Numbered from the stretch's first letter, positions 39,495-56,437 are shown. The stretch is DNA of 64,000 nt from an uncultured delta proteobacterium (GCA_963766715.1 CAVYBH010000001.1:1-64000); one strand, 5' to 3'. Notes: generated by a model not told the origin, from the letters alone. Program-made: numbers and translations.

Positions 39495-39538
39495 TTGCCG
39501 GGCGGATGCCCGAGTATTACTCTTACCAGTAAGAGTAA
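39495..39538 (+). promoter_or_regulatory. TA promoter/operator
   Basis: TTGCCG-N17-TACTCT with perfect inverted repeat TTACTCTTAC-CA-GTAAGAGTAA (39517-39538). Confidence 0.8.
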
Positions 39539-39549
39539 AGGAGCCCGGC

Positions 39550-39786
39550 ATGCGCATCACCAGCAAGGGACAGGTGACCATTCCCCAGGAGATCCGCGAG
39601 AAGGCGGGACTGCTCCCCGGCACCGAGGTCGAGTTCACCTGCGAGGGGAAGGTCGTCCGCATCCGGCGCGCCCGGACGCCGGCGCGACCGGGGAGGGGAG
39701 CGGCGCTGGTGGCGCGACTCCGCGGGACCGCCACGGTCCGCATGAGCACCGACGAGATCATGGCGCTCACGCGTGGTGAAGAGTGA
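39550..39786 (+). CDS. vapB: AbrB/MazE/SpoVT-type antitoxin (VapB)
   Basis: MRITSKGQVTIPQEIREKAGLLPGTEVEF; GTGA overlap with the toxin. Confidence 0.9.
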   Translation: MRITSKGQVTIPQEIREKAGLLPGTEVEFTCEGKVVRIRRARTPARPGRGAALVARLRGTATVRMSTDEIMALTRGEE

Positions 39787-40193
39787 CGGTCCTCGTCGAC
39801 AGCAACGTCCTCATCGACGTCGCGGGAGACGACCCGGTCTGGGGAGACTGGTCGCGCAGCGCGCTGGCGCGATGCGGGGACGCCGAGGTCCTGGTGGTGA
39901 ACCCGATCGTCTACGCCGAGGTCTCGGTGGCGTACGCCCGGGTCGAGGACGTCGAGAGGGTCCTCCCGCCGAGCGACTTCCGGCGGGAGCCGCTTCCCTG
40001 GGAGGCGGCCTTCCTGGCCGGGAAGACCTACCTGGAATACCGGAGCCGGGGAGGGCGGAGTCGCTCGCCTCTCCCCGACTTCTACATCGGCGCCCACGCG
40101 GCGGTGGCCGGCTACCGGCTGCTCACCCGGGACGCGGTTCGCTACCGGAGCTACTTCCCGCGGCTCGACGTCATCGCGCCGTCGGGAACGTGA
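39783..40193 (+). CDS. vapC: PIN-domain toxin (VapC)
   Basis: VLVDSNVLID, YAEV, PDFYIGAHA, LLTRD. Confidence 0.92.
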   Translation: MTVLVDSNVLIDVAGDDPVWGDWSRSALARCGDAEVLVVNPIVYAEVSVAYARVEDVERVLPPSDFRREPLPWEAAFLAGKTYLEYRSRGGRSRSPLPDFYIGAHAAVAGYRLLTRDAVRYRSYFPRLDVIAPSGT

Positions 40194-40212: not shown

Positions 40213-40692
40213 CTAGAACGGGATGTCGTCGGCGCTGCCGCCGCTGCCGCCACTCTCGTCGAACGGCGGTCCACCCGAGTCGTCGGGCCCGCTGGAGCCG
40301 CGCTGCCCGCCGCCTGCTCCACCGGCGCCACCCGCACCGCGAGCGCCACCTGCGCCGGCCGCGCCACCGCCCAGGAACCGGACCGAGTCGGCCACGACCT
40401 TCACGCGGGAGCGCTCCTGGCCCGACGTCTTGTCCTGCCACTTGTCGGTCTTGAGCCGCCCCTCGACGTAGACCTGCCGACCCTTGGCCAGGTACTCGCC
40501 GACCTGCTCGGCCTGCTTCCCCCAGACCTCGACGTCATGCCACTCGGTCTCTTCCTTCTTCTGGCCCGAGGCCTTGTCGGTCCAGCTGCGGGAGGTGGCG
40601 ATGCGCAGGTTGGCGACCGCCTGGCCGCCGGAGGTGTAGCGGACCTCGGGATCCTTCCCGAGGTTGCCGATCAGGATGACCTTGTTGACCAT
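40213..40692 (-). CDS. ssb: Single-stranded DNA-binding protein
   Basis: [26 protein letters not shown], Gly-rich linker, DDIPF tail. Confidence 0.98.
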
Positions 40693-40782
40693 GGCGAAAC
40701 CCTTCCATTTCGTCGCCTGGCTGCGAGCGGAAAGTTCGAGCGGGACGATGCGAAACGCACCCTAGCAAGGCGATCTGACAGG

Positions 40783-41673
40783 TCAGGCCCCGTCGTACCG
40801 GATGTCGCCCGCCCCGGCGGGATCGTAGCCGGGGATCGCGGCGACCTCGGCGCGGAACCGCCCTCCCTGCGCCACCTCGCAGACCCGCACCACGTTGCGG
40901 TCGCCCAGGTCTCTCGCCCGGACGAGCAGGCCGTAGGCCTCGCGAGCCAGCGGAAGGAACCCCAGGCCGAGCGCGTGCGCCCAGGCACGGGACGCGACGC
41001 CCAGGTCCGCGTCTCCCCGGGCCACGGCGCACACCACCTCGAGGTGGGAGGCGCAGACCACGGCCCGGCCACCCACCTCGCGGGCGTCGAGGCCCGCGGC
41101 GGCCAGCGCCTCGTCCAGGTACTTCCGGACGCCGGCGGACGGGGGCCGCGAGGCGAGCCGGCCCTGCCCGAGGTCCTTCGCCCTGGGTGGACGCCCCTTC
41201 GCCACCAGCCCGATCTCGCGGGTGACCAGGTGGATGCGGGCGATCCGTTCCTCGCCGGCGTGGGTGGGAAAGCCCCCGGCGTGGCTTCCGGAGGCGAAGA
41301 CCGAGCCCTCGCCGAGCAGGCGGAATCCGGCTTCCTTGTCGGCCTGGACGAAGCCGATCACGGTCCCCGACTCGCGCAGGAGGCGGAGCAGGATCGCCAC
41401 CACCTGGTCGCCGTTCGCGGCGATGAGCGGCGGAGCGCCCTGCGACGCGGCGGTCCCCATCGATGTTGGACCTGGGGACGCCTCGGGCTCGACCTGGCGA
41501 GCGGCTCTTCCGGGCTTCGACCAGGAGAGCACTTCCGCCCTGTCGAACCGCCACTCGGAGCCCACGCGCCGGGCCGGGAGCCCCTTCTTCAGCAGCCGGT
41601 ACACGTGCTGCGGGTGGACCCGCAGGAGCTTCGCGACTTCCTCGGTCGTCAGCAGCGCGGGAGGGCTGGGCAT
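40783..41673 (-). CDS. Excisionase-type HTH + PBP-like (molybdate/tungstate-binding) transcriptional regulator
   Basis: LLTTEEVAKLLRVHPQHVYRL..WRF HTH_17; C-terminal SHLEVVCAVARGDADLGV..GLGFLPLAREAY..PGYD PBP-like domain; divergent from modA. Confidence 0.82.
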   Translation of the reverse strand: MPSPPALLTTEEVAKLLRVHPQHVYRLLKKGLPARRVGSEWRFDRAEVLSWSKPGRAARQVEPEASPGPTSMGTAASQGAPPLIAANGDQVVAILLRLLRESGTVIGFVQADKEAGFRLLGEGSVFASGSHAGGFPTHAGEERIARIHLVTREIGLVAKGRPPRAKDLGQGRLASRPPSAGVRKYLDEALAAAGLDAREVGGRAVVCASHLEVVCAVARGDADLGVASRAWAHALGLGFLPLAREAYGLLVRARDLGDRNVVRVCEVAQGGRFRAEVAAIPGYDPAGAGDIRYDGA

Positions 41674-41751
41674 GGCCCCTGCATGATAGCGAACCCATGA
41701 GGAAGCTGATTCACGTAAACGGGGCTAGGCGTAGTTTGTTATGGTGTGTCA

Positions 41752-42586
41752 ATGCTTGACGATCGTGCTTGTCATTGCATCACGGTCGGGCGCCTGTCGC
41801 GCCGGGGGTGGCTCGTCTCGCTCCTCGCGCTGCTCCTCGCTCCGGCGTGGGCCGGGGCCGGCGAGACGCGCACCCTCTCCGTCGCAGCCGCCGCCAACCT
41901 GAAGCCCGCCCTCGACGAGATCAGCCGTCTCTTCGAGGCGAGGAACCCCGGCGTCGAGGTGAAGGCGACCTTCGGGGCCTCGGGAACCTTCTTCGCCCAG
42001 ATCGCGAACGGTGCGCCCTTCGACCTCTTCCTGTCCGCGGATTCGGAGTTTCCGGCCAAGGTGGTCGAGCAGGGGCTCGCCGACGGAAAGGCCTTCCCCT
42101 ACGCGTACGGAAAGCTGGTGGTCTGGGTCCCCAAGGACTCGAAGCTCGACCTGGACGCGAAGGGGCTCGCCGCCCTCGCCGATCCCTCGGTCCAGGAGAA
42201 TCGCCATCGCCAACCCGGACGTGGCCCCGTACGGGCGCGCCGCCCGGGCCGCCCTCGAGAAGGCCGGCGTCTACGAGCGCGTGAAGGCGCGCCTCGTGAT
42301 GGGCCAGAACGTGAACCAGGCGGCCCAGTTCGCGCAGTCGGGAAATGCGCAGGCCGCCTTCCTGCCGCTCTCGCTCGCCGGGACGCCGCCGCTCTCCATC
42401 GAGGGACGGGCATGGCTCGTGCCGCCGGCCACCTATCCCCGCGTCGAGCAGTCGGGCGTCGTCCTCCAGGGAACGAAGCATCCCGCCCTGGCAAGGGAAC
42501 TGGCCGCGTTCCTCACCGGGGACGCCGCGCGGCAGGTGTTCGCGCGCCACGGCTACGACCTGCCCGGGAATGGAGTGTCGAGATGA
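41752..42586 (+). CDS. modA: Molybdate-binding periplasmic protein (frameshifted; start uncertain)
   Basis: VAAAANL, FGASG..FAQI.NGAPFDLFLSAD, IAIANPDVAPYGRAA, GQNVNQA. Confidence 0.92.
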
Positions 42587-43485
42587 AGCGGGTTCCCGCC
42601 GTGGCCGGGTTGCTGGCTGCTCTCGTGATGGCGCTTCCCGTCCGCGCGTCCACGGATGGCGACCCGGGCGCGACCCCGCACGCCGCCGAGCCTTCCGACC
42701 TGGGCATCCTCGACTTCTTCACGAACGGCTGGAGCCAGGACTGGGTGCACCGGCGCCGCGAGACGCGCGACATGGCGCTCCTCCGGGTCACGACCAACTT
42801 CCTCGAGCGGGAGTTCCGGTTCGACTACGCGTACACGAGCCTCCTCGGCAACGCCCGGTACACCGGGACGGACTTCGCCAGCTCGCTCATGGCCTACGCC
42901 GTGAACCGGCGGCTCATGCTGGAGATCATCGCGAACTACCAGTGGAACGTGCACCCGGGCGCGTCCCCGGTGAACGGCGCCGGCGGGGCGGCCCTCCTGC
43001 GATTCCAGCTCGTCGACACGGCCACGGCCTCCTATTCCACCCAGATCCGGGTGTCGGCGCCCAACCGGGGCATCGGACAGACCCAGACGACGTTCGGCTA
43101 CTACCTGGCCGGCTGGCAGGACGTGCGAGCCTGGATCCCGGCGCTCGGCCGCGTTGGCCTCTACTACTCCTTCGAGTACGACAACCTCCAGGGCCCGGCC
43201 GCCGCGGGCGCGACCAGGAACTCCATCTCCTACGATGTATCGGTCGCCCGGACCTTCACCGACGCCTCCACGCCGGTGGTGGGGGACCTCACCGCCTTCC
43301 TGGAACTCTACGGGACGACCCCTCTCGACGGTGCGAGCTCCGGGAAGACGGTGCTGAGCCTCACGCCGGGGGTCCGCTTCTGGTTCGTCCCGAAGAACTC
43401 GCTCTCCCTCGGCGTGGACCTGCCGGTGAGCCACTCCCCGCCGTATTCCGCTGCCTGGCGCGCGACGTACATCCTGAACTTCTGA
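42583..43485 (+). CDS. Predicted outer-membrane beta-barrel/channel of unknown function
   Basis: Signal peptide; amphipathic aromatic-rich strands (EFRFDYAY, VGLYYSFEY, LTPGVRFWF); C-terminal YILNF beta-signal; ATGA overlap with modA. Confidence 0.7.
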   Translation: MKRVPAVAGLLAALVMALPVRASTDGDPGATPHAAEPSDLGILDFFTNGWSQDWVHRRRETRDMALLRVTTNFLEREFRFDYAYTSLLGNARYTGTDFASSLMAYAVNRRLMLEIIANYQWNVHPGASPVNGAGGAALLRFQLVDTATASYSTQIRVSAPNRGIGQTQTTFGYYLAGWQDVRAWIPALGRVGLYYSFEYDNLQGPAAAGATRNSISYDVSVARTFTDASTPVVGDLTAFLELYGTTPLDGASSGKTVLSLTPGVRFWFVPKNSLSLGVDLPVSHSPPYSAAWRATYILNF

Positions 43486-43524
43486 CGTGGAGCGCGCGAC
43501 GCTGGGCGGCCGGTTCGGGAGCCG

Positions 43525-44490
43525 ATGGCCCGGGTTTCGCATATCTCTCTGCGCTTGGCCCTCCGACCCCACCTCGACGACGTCCGGAGCCGCGCCCGCG
43601 GCGCGTTCCTGGGCCTGGCCCTCGGCGACGCCCTGGGCGCGACCGTCGAGTTCATGCTCCCGGGCGAGATCCGGGCGGTCCACGGGGTCCACCGGGAGCT
43701 CACCGGTGGCGGCTGGCTGAAGCTCCGGCCCGGCTCCGTCACCGACGACACCCAGATGTCCATCTGGATGGGGCGGGCCATCGCCAACGGCGGGGGCTGG
43801 GACGCCCGGCGCGCCGCCGTGCACCTCGCCGCCTGGCTCCGGACCGGACCGGCCGACGTGGGGAACACCGTGCGCCGCGGGCTCCGCCGCTTCGTCGTCG
43901 ACGGAACGCTCGAGGGGGAGCCGAGCCCGGGCGACGCCGGCAACGGCGCGGCCATGCGCGTGCTGCCGGTGGCGCTCGCCACGCTGGCCGATCACCGGGC
44001 CATGTCCCGCACGGCCATCGAGCAGGGGCGCATCACCCACCACCACCCCCTCTCCGACGCCGCCTGCATCCACGTGGGCGAGCTCATCCACATGGCGTGC
44101 CTCGGCCTCGGGATGCCGAGGCTGCGCCGGGCCTCCGACGCCTTCGTGGCCGAGCACCCGGAGTTCGCCTTCTCGCCGTACCCTGGGCTCTCCGGCGGCT
44201 ACGTGGTCGAGACGGTCGCCACCGTCCTCCACTTCCTCCACGCGACGAGCAGCTTCGAGGAGACGCTCGTCGGGATCGTGAACCGAGGCGGCGACGCCGA
44301 CACCACCGGCGCCATCGCCGGCGCGATCGCCGGCGCCTACCACGGCCCGGAGGGGCTCCCCGGACGCTGGCTGAAGCGGCTCGATCCCGAGGTTCGCGAG
44401 GAGGCGGAGTGGCTCGGGGACCAGCTCGTGGCCCTCTCCCCGCTGGGACGGGGCGAGCCTCCCCACCTGACCCCGCGCGCCGGGGCCTAG
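43525..44490 (+). CDS. draG: ADP-ribosyl-[dinitrogenase reductase] glycohydrolase
   Basis: [53 protein letters not shown]. Confidence 0.93.
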
Positions 44491-45277
44491 GCGAGCAGCC
44501 GCTTCACCCGGATCTCGCCGCCGACCACCAGGTACTCGCCCTCTCCCCGGAGGATCAGCGCGGCAGCAGGTGGCCGGCGAAGAAGATCCGCGGCACCGCC
44601 AGCCGGGCCTCCAGGACCGCGTCGCCGAACTCCCAGGCGCGCTCCACGTCGTCGGTGAAGGAGCAGAGGTTGTTCAGCCGCAGCACCCACTCGCGGCGGC
44701 CCAGGGTCTCGACCACCTGGTGGTCCTCCAGCCGGTTCTGGCCGCGCCAGAGCGTGATCCAGCGCGCGCCGGGGAGACGCCGCGCGAGCTCGTACTGCGT
44801 GAAGGTGTAGACGAGGTCGAGCTGGGCGTCGATGGCGCTCGTCCAGGCGTGGCCCCGCGTGCGGTCGGCGACGTAGCGGGCCCAGGCCTCGCCGTCCGCG
44901 CCCGCCATCTGCTCCTGGTGAAAGGTGGGGGCGATGCCCATCCGGCTCTCCACCCAGCCCTTCAGGACCGCCCCCTCCACCGAGCTCGCGTCCACTCCCC
45001 AGCCCCGCAGGAACCGGACGTACCCGTTGCGAAGGCTTCGCCGCGCGCCGGGCGTCTCCTGGGCCTGCCACTGGTGGAGCTGGAAGCGGACGTTCATCCA
45101 GTCGTCGAACTTCCGGCCGCGCTCGTCCGGGTCCTCGGTGCGGTCGAGCACCTCGAACAGGAAGCGGTTCTCCTCCCGCACTCCCTGCAGGACGATGGGG
45201 CGCGGATCCTCGTCGAAATCGCGCGAGGCGATCACCCACGGCGGCAGGTTGCACCGGTTGAAGGAAGTCCGGTTCAC
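44487..45277 (-). CDS. draT: NAD+-dinitrogenase reductase ADP-ribosyltransferase (frameshift near C-terminus)
   Basis: [68 protein letters not shown]. Confidence 0.93.
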
Positions 45278-45408
45278 GGGCTCCCGGGTGCTCGCCCGGC
45301 GTGCAGGCGCAAGGGCTTCGTTCCCGGGCGGAGTCGCCATCTCCCCGCAACGGCTCGATCGAGGGTCACGTGTCGCGCAGTCTTTGCAAGACCGGTGCTC
45401 CGCGGAAC

Positions 45409-45424
45409 TGGCACCCGAATTGCT
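45409..45424 (+). promoter_or_regulatory. sigma54 -24/-12 promoter of nifA
   Basis: TGGCACCCGAATTGCT = TGGCAC-N5-TTGC consensus. Confidence 0.8.
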
Positions 45425-45436
45425 CCACCCGATTGC

Positions 45437-46994
45437 ATGGATCCCCGGCGGGCCACCGTCGCCGTCGAGGCGCTCCACGACATCGGCCAGGTCCTCGCGC
45501 TCGCGACCGACCTGTCGAAGGCCTTCAACACGGTCCTGCAGATCCTCCGCTCGCACCTCGGGCTGGAGAACGGCACGGTCTCGCTCTTCGACCCGGTCAC
45601 CGGCGAGGTCTTCATCGAGGCCGCGCCGGAGATGCCCGACGAGGAGCGGATCCTCGGCCGGCTGCGGCCAGGGGAGGGGATCGTCGGACGGGTCTTCCAC
45701 ACAGGCCTGCCGGTGGCCATCCCCGATCTCGCCGACGAGCCCATCTTCCTCAACCGCACCGGGAGCTGGCGCGACGTGCGCGAGGACCCGCGCGCCCTCT
45801 ATGCCGTCCCGCTGCGCGAGGTGCGGTCGACGCTGGGCGTGCTCACCGCCGAGCGCCGGTGGGCGAACGGCACCTTCTCCTTCGACGCGGACCTGCGCGT
45901 CCTCACCACCGCGGCCTCCATGCTCGCGACCCGGGTCCGGCTGCACCGGGCGGAGAACCCGCTCGCCCGGGCCCGCACCGACTCCCCCGCGCTCCTGCCC
46001 GTGCGCGAGCGCTTCCGCGGCGTGGTGGGGACGAGCGCTCCCTGGCGGCAGGTCCTCGACGTGGTGGACCGGGTGGCCCAGAGCCGGGCCACGGTGCTGC
46101 TCCGGGGGGAGAGCGGCACGGGCAAGGAGGTGGTGGCCCGCGCCATCCACGAGAACGGATCCCGGGCCGGCCGGGCCTTCGTCGCCGTCAACTGCGCCGC
46201 GCTTCCCGAGTCCCTGCTCGAGAGCGAGCTCTTCGGCCACGAGCGAGGCGCCTTCACCGGCGCCGCCGCGGCGCGGCCGGGGCGGTTCGAGCTGGCCGAC
46301 GGCGGGACCATCTTCCTCGACGAGATCGGCGAGCTCCCGGTCGGCGCGCAGGTGAAGCTCCTGCGGGTCCTCCAGGAGCGGCAGTTCGAGCGGGTGGGCG
46401 GGCACCGCACGGTGACCGTGGACGTGCGGGTCGTGGCGGCGACCAACCGGGACCTGGAGGAGGCCGTCCGGAGCGGCTCCTTCCGGCTCGACCTGTACCA
46501 CCGCGTGCAGGTGGTCGAGATCGTCCTCCCTCCGCTCCGGGATCGGGCGGACGACGTGCCTCGCCTGGCCGAGGCCTTCCTCGCCGATCTCGCGGCCGAG
46601 CACGGGAGGCGGCTCATCCTCACCCGCGACGCCATGCTGGCCCTGCAGCGGCTCCAGTGGCCGGGGAACGTGCGCCAGCTGCGCAACGTGCTGGAGCGAC
46701 TCGTGGTCTCCCACGGCGACGGTCCCGTGTCGGCGTCGGACCTCGACTGGCTCGCACCCACCGTCGAGGCGGGCTGCCCGGTCGACGAGGTCGAGGCCGA
46801 CGTGCGCGAGCCTCCTCCCGCGGCGGCGGACCGTCGTCCCGGGACCGGCCGAGGCGTCGGAGCGCGACCGCGTCATCGAGGCGCTCGAGCGGGCCGGTCA
46901 CGTGCAGGCGCGCGCGGCGCGGCTGCTCGGCATGAGCGTGCGCCAGTTCCGGTACCGGGTGGCCAAGTTCGGCATCCAGGTGGAGAGATTCTGA
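45437..46994 (+). CDS. nifA: NifA-type sigma54 activator (GAF-AAA-HTH); frameshift before the HTH
   Basis: GAF (GEGIVGRV); [39 protein letters not shown]-terminal [19 protein letters not shown]. Confidence 0.85.
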
Positions 46995-47449
46995 TGGAGC
47001 CCCTCGCCGTCCGCCCCGCCGGAGCCGACGACCTCACCTCCATGGTGGCGTTGCTCGCGGAGCTGTTCGCGCTCGAGCCCGACTTCCGCGTCGATCCCGT
47101 CCGGCAGCGCCGCGGGCTCGCGCTCCTCCTCGAGGACCGGCTGCGGCGGGCGGCGCTCGTCGCGGTGCGCGGCGGCGCGGTGGTGGGCATGGTCACCGGC
47201 CAGCTCGTGGTCTCCACCGCCGAGGGGAGCGGGTCGGTGCTGGTCGAGGACCTGGTGGTGGCGGGGTCGGAGCGGAGGCGCGGAGTGGGGCGGGCGCTGC
47301 TCCGCGCCATCGAGTCTTGGGCCTCCTCGCGCGGGGCGTCCCGGCTCCAGCTCCTCGCCGACCGCGAGAACGGCGCGGCGCTCGGCTTCTACGAGCGGCT
47401 CGGCTGGACCGGCACGCGGCTCGTGTGCCTGCGGCGCGGCGGTCGGTAG
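46994..47449 (+). CDS. GNAT acetyltransferase
   Basis: TGATG coupling to nif[28 protein letters not shown]. Confidence 0.88.
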
Positions 47450-47462
47450 TTCCTGCGTCGCC

Positions 47463-50014
<2,552 letters not shown>

Positions 50015-50027
50015 TCCGGAGGACGCC

Positions 50028-51498
50028 ATGGCCAACGACCTCGGCCTCACCGTCAAGCCCGTCACGACCACCACCCCCGAGGAGGAGGCGCGCGTCGCCG
50101 CCTGGATCGACACCCCGGAGTACCGGGAGAAGAACTTCGCCCGCCAGGCCCTGGTGATGAACCCGGCCCACGCCTGCCAGCCGCTCGGCGCCGAGCTCTG
50201 CGCCCACGGCTTCGAGGGGACGCTGCCCTTCGTCCACGGCTCGCAGGGCTGCGCCTCCTACTACCGCTCCACCCTCAACCGCCACTTCCGCGAGCCGGCC
50301 CCGGCCGTCTCCGACGCCATGACCGAGGACGGCGCGGTCTTCGGCGGCCAGAACAACCTGCACGAGGGGCTGGAGAACGCCGTGGCGCTCTACAAGCCGA
50401 AGATGATCGCGGTCTTCACCTCCTGCATGCCCGAGGTCATCGGCGACGACCTGACCGCCTTCATCAAGAACGCCCGCCAGAAGGGGCTCCTGCCCGAAGG
50501 ACCTGCCGACGCCCTACGCCAACACGCCCAGCTTCAACGGCTCGCACGTCACCGGCTACGACGCCATGCTGCTCGCCATCCTGCAGACCCTCACCGAGGG
50601 GAAGAAGGTGGAGGGGCGCTGCACCGGCAAGCTGAACTTCATCCCCGGCTTCGACGCCAACACCGGCAACTACCGGGAGTACAAGCGGATCTTCGAGGCC
50701 TTCGGCATCCCCTCCACCTTCCTGGCCGACATCTCCGAGACCTTCGACTCGCCGAACGACGGCACCTACCGGCTCTACCCGGGCGGCACGCCGCTCCTCG
50801 AGGCCGGCCGACTCCATCAACGGCAAGGCCACCCTGACGGTCGGCCCCTACGCCACCGCCAAGACCTTCGCCTGGATCAAGGAGAACTACGCCGGCAGCA
50901 CGCCTCGCTGCCCATGCCCATGGGCATCGCCAAGACCGACGCGTTCCTCCTGAAGCTCGCCGAGCTCTTCGACAGGCCGGTGCCGGACGTCCTCAAGGCC
51001 GAGCGCGGCCGCGCGGTGGACGCCATGACCGACGCCCAGCAGTACATGCACGGCAAGAAGTTCGCCGTGTACGGCGATCCCGACCAGCTGCTCGGCTACG
51101 TCTCCTTCCTGCTGGAGATGGGCGCCATGCCGCACCACGTCCTCTGCTCCAAGGGCTCGAAGAAGCTCGAGAAGGAGCTGCAGGCGCTGCTCGACGCCTC
51201 GCCCTACGGCAAGGGGGCGCAGGTCTGGATGAACCGGGACCTGTGGCACCTGCGCTCGCTGCTCATGACCGACCCGGTGGACGCCCTCATCGGCGACACC
51301 CACGGCAAGTTCGCCGCCCGCGACGCCAAAATCCCGCTCTTCCGCTTCGGCTTCCCCGTCTTCGACCGGGTCAACAAGCACCGCAGCCCCATCATCGGCT
51401 ACCAGGGCGCCATCAACATGCTCACCGAGATCTGCAACAAGTTCCTCGACATCAAGGACGAGACCTGCGAGGAGCGCTTCTTCGAGATGATGCGGTGA
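50028..51498 (+). CDS. nifK: Mo-nitrogenase beta subunit (frameshifted)
   Basis: [39 protein letters not shown]. Confidence 0.96.
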
Positions 51499-51504
51499 GC
51501 GCCG

Positions 51505-54273
51505 ATGGCCAGGCCCGACTGCTACGACGCCCCGGAGTGCGACACCCCGGAGAAGGGGGCGCCGAAGTTCTGCAAGAAGTCGGAGCCCGGCGAGGGGACC
51601 GAGCGGAGCTGCGCCTTCGACGGCGCCCGCGTGGTGCTCATGCCCGTCACCGACGCCATCCACCTGGTGCACGGCCCCATCGCCTGCGCCGGCAACTCCT
51701 GGGACAACCGCGGCGCCCGCTCCTCCGGCTCGCAGCTCTACCGGCGCGGCTTCACCACCGAGATGCTGGAGAACGACGTCATCTTCGGCGGGCGAGAAGA
51801 AGCTCCACGCGGCCATCGTCGAGCTGGCCGCGCGCTACGCCGGCGAGGCCAAGGCCATCTTCGTCTACGCCACCTGCGTCACCGCCATGACCGGCGACGA
51901 CGTCGAGGCGGTCTGCAGCGCGGGCCGCCGGCGAGGTGGCCATCCCGGTCATCCCGGTCAACACGCCCGGCTTCATCGGCGACAAGAACATCGGCAACCG
52001 GCTGGCCGGCGAGATCCTGCTCGACCACGTCATCGGCACCGCCGAGCCGGCGCGCACCACCCCCTACGACGTGAACCTCATCGGCGAGTACAACATCGCC
52101 GGCGACCTGTGGGGCATGCTGCCGCTCTTCGAGCGGCTCGGCATCCGCATCCTCTCCTGCATCAGCGGCGACGCGCGGTTCGAGGACCTGCGCTGCGCCC
52201 ACCGGGCGCGGCTCAACGTCATCATCTGCTCGAAGAGCCTCACCAACCTGGCCCGGAAGATGCGGAAGCGCTACGGCATCCCGTACCTGGAGGAGTCGTT
52301 CTACGGGATGACCGACACCGCCAAGGCGCTGCGGGACATGGCGCGCGAGCTCGACCTGGCGAACGGCGGCGAGGGCGACACCACCATGCGGGACCGGGTG
52401 GAGGCGCTCGTCGCCGACGAGGAGGCGCGCTGCCGGGCCCGCATCGGCCCCTACCGGGCGCGGCTCGCCGGGAAGCGGGCCGTGCTCTTCACCGGCGGCG
52501 TGAAGACCTGGTCGATGGTCAACGCGCTGCGGGAGCTCGGCGTGGAGGTGCTGGCGGCCGGCACCCAGAACTCCACCCTCGAGGACTTCCACCGGATGAA
52601 GTCCCTCATGCACCAGGACGCCCGCATCATCGAGGACACCTCGACGGCGGGGCTCCTGGCGGTGATGCGGGAGAAGATGCCCGACCTCATGGTGGCCGGC
52701 GGCAAGACCAAGTTCCTGGCGCTCAAGACCCGCACCCCCTTCCTCGACATCAACCACGGGCGCTCCCACCCCTACGCCGGCTACGAGGGGATGGTCACCT
52801 TCGCCCGCCAGCTCGACCTGACCGTGAACAGCCCCATCTTCCCGGCCATGAACGCGCGGGCCCCGTGGGAGCTGCCGGCGGGAGAGCGCGAGGCGCGCCG
52901 GGCCGGCGGCCGCCGGCCACGCCGGCGCGCTTCCTGGCCGAGGACCTGCCGCCTCGCGGGTGAAGGTCCCGGCCAAGGCCGCCACCGTCAACCCCCAGAA
53001 GAACTCGCCGGCGCTGGGGGCCACGCTCGCCTACCTGGGCGTGGACCGGATGCTCGGCCTCCTGCACGGCGCGCAGGGCTGCTCGACCTTCATCCGGCTC
53101 CAGCTCTCCCGCCACTTCAAGGAGTCGGTGGCGCTCAACTCGACCGCCATGAGCGAGGACACCGCCATCTTCGGCGGCTGGAAGAACCTCAAGGCCGGCG
53201 TGGCCCGGGTGATCGAGAAGTTCCGGCCCGCGGTGGTCGGCGTCATGACCTCCGGGCCTCACCGAGACCATGGGCGACGACGTCCGGGGCGCCATCGCGC
53301 AGTTCCGGACCGAGCGCCCCGACCTCGACGGCCACCCCGGTGGTCTGGGCCTCCACGCCCGACTACTGCGGCTCGCTCCAGGAGGGGTACGCCGCCGCGG
53401 TGGAGGCGCTCCTCGAGACGCTCGCCGAGGGCGGCCCGACCATCCCCGCCAGGTCAACCTGCTCCCCGGCGCCCACCTCACCCCGGCCGACGTCGAGGAG
53501 CTGAAGGGGCTCGTCGAGGCCTTCGGCTTCCGGGTCCTCGCCATCCCCGACACCGCCAACGCCCTCGACGGCCACGTCGACGACGTGGTCTCGCCGCTCT
53601 CCACCGGCGGCGTGCCGGTGGACCGGCATCCGCCTGGCCGGGCGCAGCGCCGCCACCCTCTACGTGGGCGACTCGCTCGCACCGCGCCGCCCGGCGCGCT
53701 CGAGGAGCGGCACGGCGTCCCGGCCTTCGGCATGAACTCGGCCACCGGCCTCGCCGAGGTCGACCACCTGGTGGCCACGCTCGCCGCCCTCTCCGGCCGC
53801 CCGGTGCCGGAGGCGCTCCGCCGCTGGCGCAGCCGGCTCCTCGACGCCATGGTCGACAGCCACTACCAGTTCGGCGGCAAGAAGGTGGCCATCGCGCTCG
53901 AGGCCGACGCGCTCAAGGCGATGACCCGCTTCCTCGCCGGCATGGGCTGCGACGTCCGCTGGCGCTCGCCGCCACCCGCACCCGGGGGCTCGACGAGCTG
54001 CCCTGCGCCGGACGTCCGGGTGGGCGACCTCGAGGACCTGGAGGACGCGCGCCCGGGGCATGGACCTCCTGGTCGCCAACTCCAACGGCCGGCAGGCCGC
54101 CGCCGAGGCTGGGGGTGAAGGCCCACCTGCGGGCCGGCTACCCGGTCTTCGACCGGCTCGGCGCCCACGCCCGGGTCTGGGCCGGCTACCGGGGCACCCT
54201 GAACCTGGTCTTCGAGGTGGCGAACCTGTTCCAGGCGAACGCCACCGAGGCGCAGCGGCTGGCCCACAACTGA
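51505..54273 (+). CDS. nifEN: FeMo-co scaffold NifE-NifN, probably one fused gene (many frameshifts)
   Basis: NifE: ERSCAFDGA, HGPIAC, GEYNIAG, TGGVKTWS. NifN: NPQKNSPALGA, HGAQGC, GYPVFDRLG. No clear RBS between the halves. Confidence 0.88.
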
Positions 54274-54289
54274 GAGGAAGGAGCCGGGC

Positions 54290-54677
54290 ATGCGGATGGC
54301 ATTCACGAGCAGCGACGGCCGGACCATCGACGAGCACTTCGGCATGGCCGGCCAGTTCCACATCTGGGAGGTCGGGCCCGGACGGGCCGAGCCGGTGGGA
54401 ACGGTGACGGCCATCACCACCTCCGACGACGAGGAGGACCGCATCTCGGCGCGGGCCAGCGCCATCGCCGGCTGCGCCATCGTCTACACGGTGCGCATCG
54501 GCGGCCCGGCCGCGGCGAAGCTCGTGGCCCGGCGCATCCACCCCATGAAGACCGGGGCCGAGGTGCCCATCGACGAGGTGGTCGGGAAGTTGCAGGAGGT
54601 GCTGCGAGGAAGGCCGCCGCCCTGGCTCCGCAAGGCCATGGACGCGGGGATCGGCGGCGGCGGAAGTCGTCGACTGA
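54290..54677 (+). CDS. nifX: NifX FeMo-co precursor carrier (end approximate)
   Basis: [38 protein letters not shown]. Confidence 0.88.
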
Positions 54678-54713
54678 CAGTGCGGGTGCGTCCCGCAGGC
54701 GAGGAGACACACC

Positions 54714-54977
54714 ATGGCGTACATCACCGGACTCACCCGAGGCAGGCAGGAATGGACCCCGCGCTTCGTCCGCGCGGTCGACCCCGAGAAGTGCATCGGC
54801 TGTGGCCGCTGCATCAAGATCTGCGCCCACGACGTGCTGGCGCCGGCCGAGGTGGACGAGGAGGAGTCGGCCAAGATGTTCGCCGCCGTCGCCAACGCGG
54901 AGGCCTGCATCGGCTGCGAGGCCTGCGGCCGCACCTGCAAGAAGGACGCGTTCAGCTTCGAGCCGCTGCTCGCCTGA
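54714..54977 (+). CDS. fdxB: nif-associated 2[4Fe-4S] ferredoxin (ferredoxin III type)
   Basis: [17 protein letters not shown] and [11 protein letters not shown]. Confidence 0.85.
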
Positions 54978-54988
54978 GGAGCGATGCC

Positions 54989-56437
54989 ATGACCGGCCTG
55001 CCCGTGGTCCGAGCATCCAACTGCACGTTCGGCCGCGGGTGCGGCGACGCCGGGAGCCCCGCGCGCCGCTCCCGCCCGACGTGGCGGCGCAGGTCGCGAG
55101 CCATCCCTGCTACAGCGAGGAGGCCCACCACCACTTCGCGCGCATGCACGTGGCGGTGGCCCCGGCGTGCAACATCCAGTGCAACTACTGCAACCGGAAG
55201 TACGACTGCGCGAACGAGAGCCGCCCCGGCGTGGTCTCGGAGCGGCTCCGTCCCGAGGACGCGGTCCGCAAGGTGCTGGCGGTGGCCGAGCAGGTGCCCG
55301 AGCTCTCGGTGGTGGGCATCGCCGGACCGGGCGACGCGCTCGCCAACGCCGAGGCCACCTTCGCCACGCTCGAGGGGGTCGCGCGGGCCGCGCCCGACCT
55401 CACCCTCTGCCTGTCGACGAACGGGCTCGCGCTGCCCGAGCACGTCGACCGGCTGGTGTCGCTCGGGGTCCGGCACGTGACGGTGACCGTCAACATGACC
55501 GACCCGGAGGTCGGCGAGCGGATCTACCCGTGGATCGTCCGGGACGGGCGGAAGGTCCGCGGGCGTCGAGGCCTCGCGCATCCTCTCCGAGCGGCAGCTC
55601 GAGGGCATCGCGCTCCTGCGGGCCCGGGGCGTCCTCGTGAAGGTGAACTCGGTCGTCATCCCCGGCGTGAACGACGCCCACCTGGCCGACGTCGCGCGGA
55701 CGGTCCGGGCGGCCGGGCGCCTTCCTCGTGAACCTGGTGCCCCTCATCTCCGCGCCGGAGCACGGGACCCACTTCGGCCTCACCGGCCAGCGCGGCCCGA
55801 CGCCGCGGAGCTCGAGGACGTGCAGCGGGCCTGCGAGCTCGACGCCCGGCTCATGCGCCACTGCCGGCAGTGCCGCGCCGACGCGGTGGGGCGGCTCGGC
55901 GAGGACCGCTTCGACTCCTTCACGCTCGCCCGGCTCCCCCCGGGCCCGGCCCGGGACGCGGGCGAAGCTCCGCGCCGAGCGGCGCGCCGCGGTGGAGCGG
56001 GTGCGGGCGGCGGCCGCCCGGGAGCGGGACGCGGCGCTCGTGTCGCCGCGAGGGTCGCGATGCCGGCCGCGCCGGCGGTCCGGGTGGCGGTGGCCACGAA
56101 GAGCGGCGGTCTGGTCGACCAGCACTTCGGCCACGCCCGGGAGTTCCTCGTCTACGACGTCTCGCCCGGCGGCGTGAAGCTCGTCGGCCGGCGCTCCGCC
56201 GAGACCTACTGCGCGGGCGGGGAGGGGGACGACGACGCGCTCGACGCGGTCCTGCGCGTCCCTCGCGGGCTGCGCGGCGGTCCTGGTGGCGAAGATCGGG
56301 CATTGCCCGCGCGGCCAGCTCGAGGCGGCCGGCATCGAGGCCTCCGAGGCGCAGGCCTTCCGCCCCATCGAGGCGGCGCTGCTCGAGTGGCTCCTCGCCC
56401 GCCAGGGGCACGGGGAGCGAGGGCGGTGGGCGCGTGA
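54989..56437 (+). CDS. nifB: Radical SAM FeMo-co biosynthesis protein NifB with C-terminal NifX-like domain (frameshifted)
   Basis: [53 protein letters not shown]. Confidence 0.95.

Follow-up and report, generated by a model that had tools for sequence, protein, structure and literature searches.

Introduction

Passage of molybdate across the inner membrane is accounted for by ModABC, and for the missing step across the outer membrane we describe a candidate: a small barrel protein encoded by a single gene behind modA in DNA of an uncultured delta proteobacterium (positions 42583-43485 of GCA_963766715.1 CAVYBH010000001.1:1-64000; this whole stretch of 64,000 nucleotides is called the window below). 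The protein and its homologues, referred to here as the barrel, apparently stand under three different molybdenum (Mo)-type regulators. The phosphate porins OprP and OprO, 16-stranded trimers with an arginine ladder, are oxyanion-selective and co-regulated with their own ABC transporter, and thereby a functional analogue of the channel that we propose; the barrel, in contrast, is predicted to have 12 strands, a plug and a lumen without net basic charge, and the 50 structural matches listed for it do not include OprP.

For molybdate itself, the sole outer-membrane partner that we found in the literature is IcmP of Pseudomonas aeruginosa, which acts with secreted ModA (PMC8602904, PMC9171197). 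In that route ModA has to be secreted by a type VI system, and IcmP is described as a metalloproteinase outer-membrane protein (PMC8602904, PMC9171197); no sequence link between it and the barrel was found or is suggested. A dedicated molybdate porin was not found in open-access literature listings, a search that had subscription papers and regulon databases outside its range, and in the accessible text of a Mo review the word 'porin' does not occur (PMC7759655). By fold, the closest described proteins are the COG4313/SphA/TcpY channels (PF13557), represented by Pput2725 (PDB 4RL8), and the amyloid secretion pore FapF (PDB 5O65), a 12-stranded barrel in which salt bridges hold the plug in place (PMC5557850). 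As for regulation, HTH_17 and PBP-like are the canonical domains of TaoR (PMC11980592), and ModE is a repressor of Mo uptake genes (PMC11672702).

The interpretation that we favour, and hold to be on balance probable, is that the barrel is an outer-membrane channel of the Mo regulon which feeds molybdate to ModA and ModBC, in this genome beside a nif cluster. The wider proposal, which we regard as evenly poised, is that of a dedicated molybdate/tungstate channel family with the barrel as its first member, in which a plugged barrel of the COG4313 fold has exchanged hydrophobic cargo for a metal oxyanion and provides, within ModE, HTH_17-TOBE and TaoR-like regulons of three phyla, the outer-membrane step of high-affinity Mo uptake. 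As modelled, the barrel is a new form of a known fold, and its cargo probably belongs to a new class. If the proposal is true, the COG4313 fold would serve metal oxyanions besides hydrophobic cargo, which would bear on how Mo limits nitrogen fixation and anaerobic respiration.

Gene context of barrel homologues

In a scan of GTDB genomes, the barrel turned up at 36 loci, which belong to 34 genomes from three phyla (Myxococcota, Acidobacteriota and Pseudomonadota); modA is present in all 34. Genes for Mo or tungsten (W) transport or storage lie within 5 kb in 19 of the 36 loci (modA or modABC in 11, mop in 7, a TupA-like gene in 1), and a Mo-type regulator lies within this distance in nine more, so that 28 of the 36 are linked; for comparison, the share of the source genome that is equally near to Mo/W genes or Mo-type regulators is about 0.6%. 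The remaining loci comprise three beside pstSCAB, three with neither and two that are cut short; among them, the remnant of a TOBE gene lies upstream in L042, and the ModE boxes of L031 and L037 are borderline at 13/20. Of 80 metagenome loci, 40 are linked, four are unlinked and 36 are too short to be judged (40 of the 44 judgeable). The sequence-only reading of the window had proposed co-location of homologues with Mo uptake or nif genes as a test; the former was borne out, and the latter was not, since the 116 homologue loci gave no match to the markers nifH, nifD, nifE and draG.

The genes are arranged in at least six orders. Same-strand runs with modA include barrel-modABC (L080, with 1 nt between barrel and modA), barrel-modA-modB (L101), mop-modA-barrel (L122) and barrel-regulator-modA-modB (L075), and Mo-linked loci are scattered over a quick tree. 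As the loci are rich in kin and the search favoured close homologues, these changes of order and of regulator are stronger evidence than the locus counts. RND efflux systems also lie within 5.5 kb of the barrel in 18 of the 36 loci (L007-L042); we do not take a partnership with RND efflux to be the main link, as the pumps fall into four groups with 25-39% identity between groups and none is present at the locus described here.

Organization of the locus

The window belongs to a genome of 4.2 Mb with 72% GC and an estimated completeness of 85%. The features of the locus are as follows:

40783-41673, minus strand: HTH_17 (excisionase/BldC-like) + PBP_like regulator, 296 amino acids (Pfam and NCBIfam)
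41726-41788, plus strand: predicted operator, A+T-rich, direct repeats with a period of about 10 bp (matrix from other regulator spacers)
41746-42586, plus strand: modA, periplasmic molybdate-binding protein (TIGR01256 over cut-off in both halves)
42583-43485, plus strand: unnamed outer-membrane protein of 300 amino acids, predicted 12-stranded plugged beta-barrel of the COG4313/FapF fold (AlphaFold2, structural matches)
42583-42648, plus strand: probable Sec signal peptide, residues 1-22, ending in V-R-A (by-eye reading; low-confidence N-terminal helix in the model)
42670-42810, plus strand: putative plug, a conserved stretch near the N-terminus (residues 30-76) that includes the basic patch H56-R59 (model confidence, conservation)
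43525-44490, plus strand: draG, first gene of the adjoining nif cluster, context outside the module (TIGR02662 over cut-off)

The TGA of modA (42584-42586) overlaps the ATG of the barrel open reading frame by 4 nt as ATGA, as had been read from the sequence at the outset. The two halves of modA score 84.8 and 89 bits against TIGR01256 (cut-off 62.5) and are separated by a one-base frameshift near 42194-42199. The frameshift is probably an assembly error, because orthologues read continuously through the site, the extra base is missing from one contig each of runs X1 and X6 (both with depth <5), and nifD and pstS of the same genome are also split. The ATG of an orthologous modA lines up with the CTG at 41794, and the true start probably lies near this position. 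This is the sole modA of the genome. The modB and modC genes, described as absent from the window in the sequence-only reading, are indeed missing there, but not from the genome: they stand together on contig C2, from C2:199337, with no modA there, and a route without ModBC is thus not supported.

A strict scan of 40600-43700 for sigma-70 promoters and terminators gave no match, Rfam applied to 14 loci including this one returned tRNA only, with no molybdenum cofactor riboswitch at the gathering score, and a search of a plasmid collection gave no match. Downstream, the window carries draG-draT-nifA-GNAT-nifHDK-nifEN-nifX-nifB (43525-55700), with several genes split by single-base indels as is typical of an unpolished assembly.

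Regulators and predicted operators

The divergent regulator has HTH_17 (E 7e-13) and PBP_like (E 4e-27) domains, in line with the TaoR-like architecture attributed to it from the sequence, and there is no second such gene in the genome. Its orthologues are divergent from modABC in five relatives (G001, G006, G042, G057, G064), and in this family the regulator is the usual neighbour of modABC. We liken it to the TaoR family by architecture and context; its targets here would be modA and the barrel, and no tupA was found in this genome at its 85% completeness, the single PBP_like_2 locus being pstS.

For the DNA-binding domain of the HTH_17-PBP regulators, the sole PDB matches, which are weak, are to BldC, a protein that binds direct repeats head to tail (PMC5859096), and direct repeats of 10 bp would therefore suit this domain. 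The spacers of 25 such regulators have a 10-bp periodicity (z 5.7), and like repeats occur upstream of barrels without an adjoining regulator, for example L023, L094 and L097. A matrix of the 10-bp-repeat operator, built from 25 other regulator spacers, scored 12.0 at 41726-41755, a value reached in 7 of 1000 shuffles, or in 29 of 1000 when the A+T-rich core was shuffled, and ranking ninth in the genome; we consider this a moderate match.

The spacer between regulator and modA has 44-58% GC against 72% for the genome. It contains the 9-mers TGTCAATGC at 41747 and TGTCATTGC at 41770 as well as GTCAA-TGC-TTGAC at 41748, and a contig of run X1 spanning 41558-42026 differs in one letter. The motif TGTCAWTGC occurs four times in the 4.2-Mb genome, twice in this spacer, and the 9-mers lie within a 19-bp direct repeat (41747-41765 and 41770-41788; 15/19 identical; 1 of 1000 shuffles). 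Of the spacer motifs noted in the sequence-only reading, the AT-rich tract, both repeats and the inverted repeat are in place, but the latter is not kept in orthologous spacers and was rejected as an operator; the operator is likely the direct repeat with 10-bp period.

The same reading saw no ModE box, and rightly so: with the 20-position consensus of the E. coli type (PMC545781), the window has no match at up to 3 mismatches, and the best site in the spacer (10/20) equals the mode of the shuffles. Neither a ModE nor a Mop gene was found in this genome, again at 85% completeness. Among homologues, however, ModE boxes of at least 14/20 precede 11 of the 104 barrels examined, and none of 1040 shuffles scored above 13; the highest are those of L116 (20/20), L039 (19) and L114 (18), with L095 and L096 representing a single sequence. 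Ten of the 11 boxes overlap a loosely defined sense promoter, which comes easily as the box is itself TATA-rich; this position would be that of a repressor site.

In Thermoanaerobaculia an HTH_17-TOBE regulator heads modABC, and a 24-bp box is common to 15 spacers, with leave-one-out scores of 24-40 for a matrix seeded from sites anchored by eye rather than found de novo. It scores 21, 19 and 12.6 upstream of three pst-adjacent barrels and 14.8 at L067/L068; shuffles have a 95th percentile below 3, with one of 500 shuffles of L010 reaching 14.6. For these three barrels a phosphate-channel reading was considered and rejected, as the HTH_17-TOBE box is kept and a Mop-domain gene stands just upstream of modA elsewhere in their genomes. 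The regulator itself is compact, with HTH_17 and a single TOBE domain encoded before modABC (L008:5508-5915 and orthologues) and a conserved predicted direct-repeat box of 24 bp. Predicted operator motifs for two little-studied Mo regulators are thus a by-product of this analysis.

Predicted structure of the barrel

The barrel gave no Pfam match at E<=1 and a single, chance-level match in NCBIfam. Its homologues (273 matches, 143 among 50%-identity representatives) are all named 'hypothetical protein' among the matches listed, and every named record derives from a metagenome-assembled genome. PDB sequence searches, with the protein and with a 139-row profile, returned nothing meaningful. An AlphaFold2 model from the 139-row alignment has a predicted local distance difference test score (pLDDT) of 93.5 and twelve strands between residues 77 and 299, in agreement with the beta-barrel suspected from the sequence. 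The best structural match is FapF (5O65; Z 21.4, root-mean-square deviation 2.5 over 223 residues), and Pput2725 (4RL8) is matched with Z 20.9 and a deviation of 2.7 over 220 residues; autotransporter barrels and KdgM (Z 18.9) come next. The cut-off of PF13557 was passed by 9 of 51 relatives scanned, all of them distant, and the nearest protein-atlas clusters include one with 15% PF13557 members. From the structural matches together with these distant relatives, the barrel is, as modelled, a divergent branch of the COG4313/FapF fold rather than a PF13557 member. One distant PF13557-positive relative, P0185, has a long His/Glu-rich N-terminus, a hint that metal cations may be handled by other branches of the lineage.

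With Pput2725 the barrel shares, as modelled, the 12 strands and a mature length of about 278 residues after removal of the probable signal peptide, within the 270-320 of COG4313 channels (PMC4493636), but identity in the structural alignment is 8% and there is no PF13557 match. The PTG of COG4313 channels, found as PTG or PSG in PF13557-positive relatives, is replaced after strand 5 by P160-N161-K/R162-G163, and the barrel belongs to Mo regulons whereas COG4313 channels belong to aromatic-degradation operons. Compared with FapF, which exports polypeptides, the model is without the long N-terminal coiled coil, and no fap-type genes are found among the annotated neighbours.

Before strand 1, residues ~30-76 are ordered (pLDDT 80-98) with almost no regular secondary structure. 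G49 and W50 are invariant in this segment, and F45, F46, W54, D63 and R68 are highly conserved; the structural alignments to 4RL8 and 5O65 begin at residues 68 and 59, respectively. From the structural matches we infer that it plugs the lumen, with ~47 residues against ~14 in Pput2725. The basic patch WVHRRRETRD and the terminal Phe noted in the sequence-only reading are both present, the patch at residues 54-63. By strand alternation, five conserved arginines (R79, R140, R156, R265, R293) would face inward, and the invariant aromatics W178, Y194, F239 and W267 lie in the putative lumen.

Proposed function and alternative explanations

Under Mo shortage, the regulator would let modA and the barrel be transcribed, the HTH_17-PBP protein presumably sensing molybdate and binding the 10-bp repeats. 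Molybdate, and with it tungstate, would diffuse through the narrow plugged pore into the periplasm, past a narrow oxyanion site that the plug and the five arginines may form. ModA would act as periplasmic sink that captures molybdate, and would hand it to the ModBC permease encoded on contig C2 for import. In this scheme sensing, the sign of regulation, the cargo and the hand-off are inferred.

Several observations weigh against it. For the COG4313 members characterised so far, the proposed cargo is hydrophobic, and polar solutes hardly pass through Pput2725 (PMC4493636). The inward wall of the barrel has seven conserved acids and a net charge of about -5, as judged by strand alternation only, and the plug a net charge of about -0.6 with H56-R59 included; there is no clear basic ladder. 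The basic patch alone is no sign of anion selectivity, since the putative lumen wall is net acidic, and on the model lumen charge neither proves nor excludes an anion site. The HTH_17-TOBE box lies, by eye, just upstream of an apparent -35 element of the barrel promoter, where it also fits activation by molybdate. The homologue loci were found with two peptide patterns taken from close homologues, and many are kin, so that their counts overstate independence. L033, L056 and L083 have no Mo gene nearby and no clear operator, with L033 being a long-branch second copy. Finally, most modA-bearing relatives are without the barrel (7 of 92 genomes of the taxonomic family carry it), and the gene is therefore dispensable.

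Alternatively, the barrel could be a Mo-starvation channel for Mo with organic or sulfur ligands (a catecholate-type chelate, thiomolybdate or a pterin cofactor fragment), from which molybdate would be released in the periplasm and taken up by ModA. Aromatic and amphipathic cargo has been associated with the fold family (PMC4493636), the putative lumen with its invariant aromatics is mixed in charge rather than basic, and the regulon evidence fits equally well; however, neither a metallophore synthesis gene nor a TonB component is a recurring neighbour, the PTG tied to a lateral gate (PMC5557850) is the very motif that is replaced by P-N-K/R-G, and co-transcription with modA, of a family that binds the bare oxyanion, points to molybdate. 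We consider this cargo doubtful. Unlikely, too, is a barrel switched on when Mo is sufficient, which admits the substrate of a molybdoenzyme or lets excess Mo or W out. In Myxococcota, mop and a gene with an Oxidored_molyb domain frequently stand behind or beside the barrel, two moeA genes are divergent from it in the short metagenome locus L117, RND pumps are near in 18 of 36 loci and the position of the HTH_17-TOBE box would allow activation, all of which such a role would explain; the tight same-strand coupling to modA (4-nt overlap here, 1-nt gap in L080), the overlap of ModE boxes with the sense promoter and the heterogeneity of the pumps, together with their absence from this locus, speak against it.

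The sequence-only reading had taken modA and the barrel for a porin and binding-protein route dedicated to nitrogenase, without ModBC. The cassette does adjoin draG-draT-nifA-nifHDK, modA stands alone before draG in two same-genus genomes, and nifD is present in 5 of the 7 barrel-bearing genomes of the family; but only 7 of the 34 barrel-carrying genomes have nifD, and of the 92 family genomes 39 have nifD over cut-off, most of them without the barrel. With modBC on contig C2, a single modA, 10 matches to the molybdopterin oxidoreductase family in the genome (some of which may be non-Mo homologues) and no nif or draG marker in the homologue loci, this route is largely refuted at the level of the family and very unlikely. 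The ssb-draG gap is empty in two of four same-genus nif genomes, holds modA alone in the other two, and here holds regulator, modA and barrel; by this comparison the cassette is a lineage-specific insertion, and its link to nif local and recent. Since it is inserted beside draG, nitrogenase is probably a major customer in this lineage; the barrel family would serve molybdoenzymes in general. That the barrel is an unrelated porin, functionally unconnected to the Mo cassette and only mobile together with it, we find scarcely credible: insertion here and a patchy distribution (strong matches in 12 of 356 Myxococcota genomes) would suit it, but the link has held through many rearrangements and as the regulator changed three times, with a separate predicted operator upstream in each case, and such operators are also present at barrels far from any mod gene. 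Strong matches also occur in 1 of 401 genomes sampled from the phylum of G122, and in cultured collections, to the extent sampled, members of the family are rare.

Further observations

In G049, a genome without the barrel, a 436-aa porin-like protein (L147:7337-8647, G049:C1) is encoded between modA and the HTH_17-PBP regulator; it is unrelated to the barrel, with DcaP/Porin_2 as atlas neighbours, and this single case hints at a functional, non-orthologous replacement. DcaP/Porin_2 genes follow the barrel in L095 and L096. In mod loci of Thermoanaerobaculia, the barrel is followed by a second unnamed secreted protein with terminal Phe (L008:7045-7911, also L009, L016, L022 and several metagenome loci). 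With its PTG motif and a weak alignment over the length of the barrel (hhalign probability 1.8%), it is possibly a further channel of the COG4313 type within that Mo regulon.

In Myxococcota, a small secreted-looking protein with an Oxidored_molyb domain recurs by mop and the barrel (L015:9080-9565, L011:3790-4338 and others). Mo clusters also repeatedly contain modD with mop (L011:6679-7518, TIGR01334 over cut-off; L017, L023, L141), and those of L023 and L141 contain a TrmO_N-domain gene. In the window, a gene pair at 39495-40193 between radC and ssb, which we take to be an AbrB-type antitoxin and a PIN-domain gene, is present in two of the four same-genus relatives examined.

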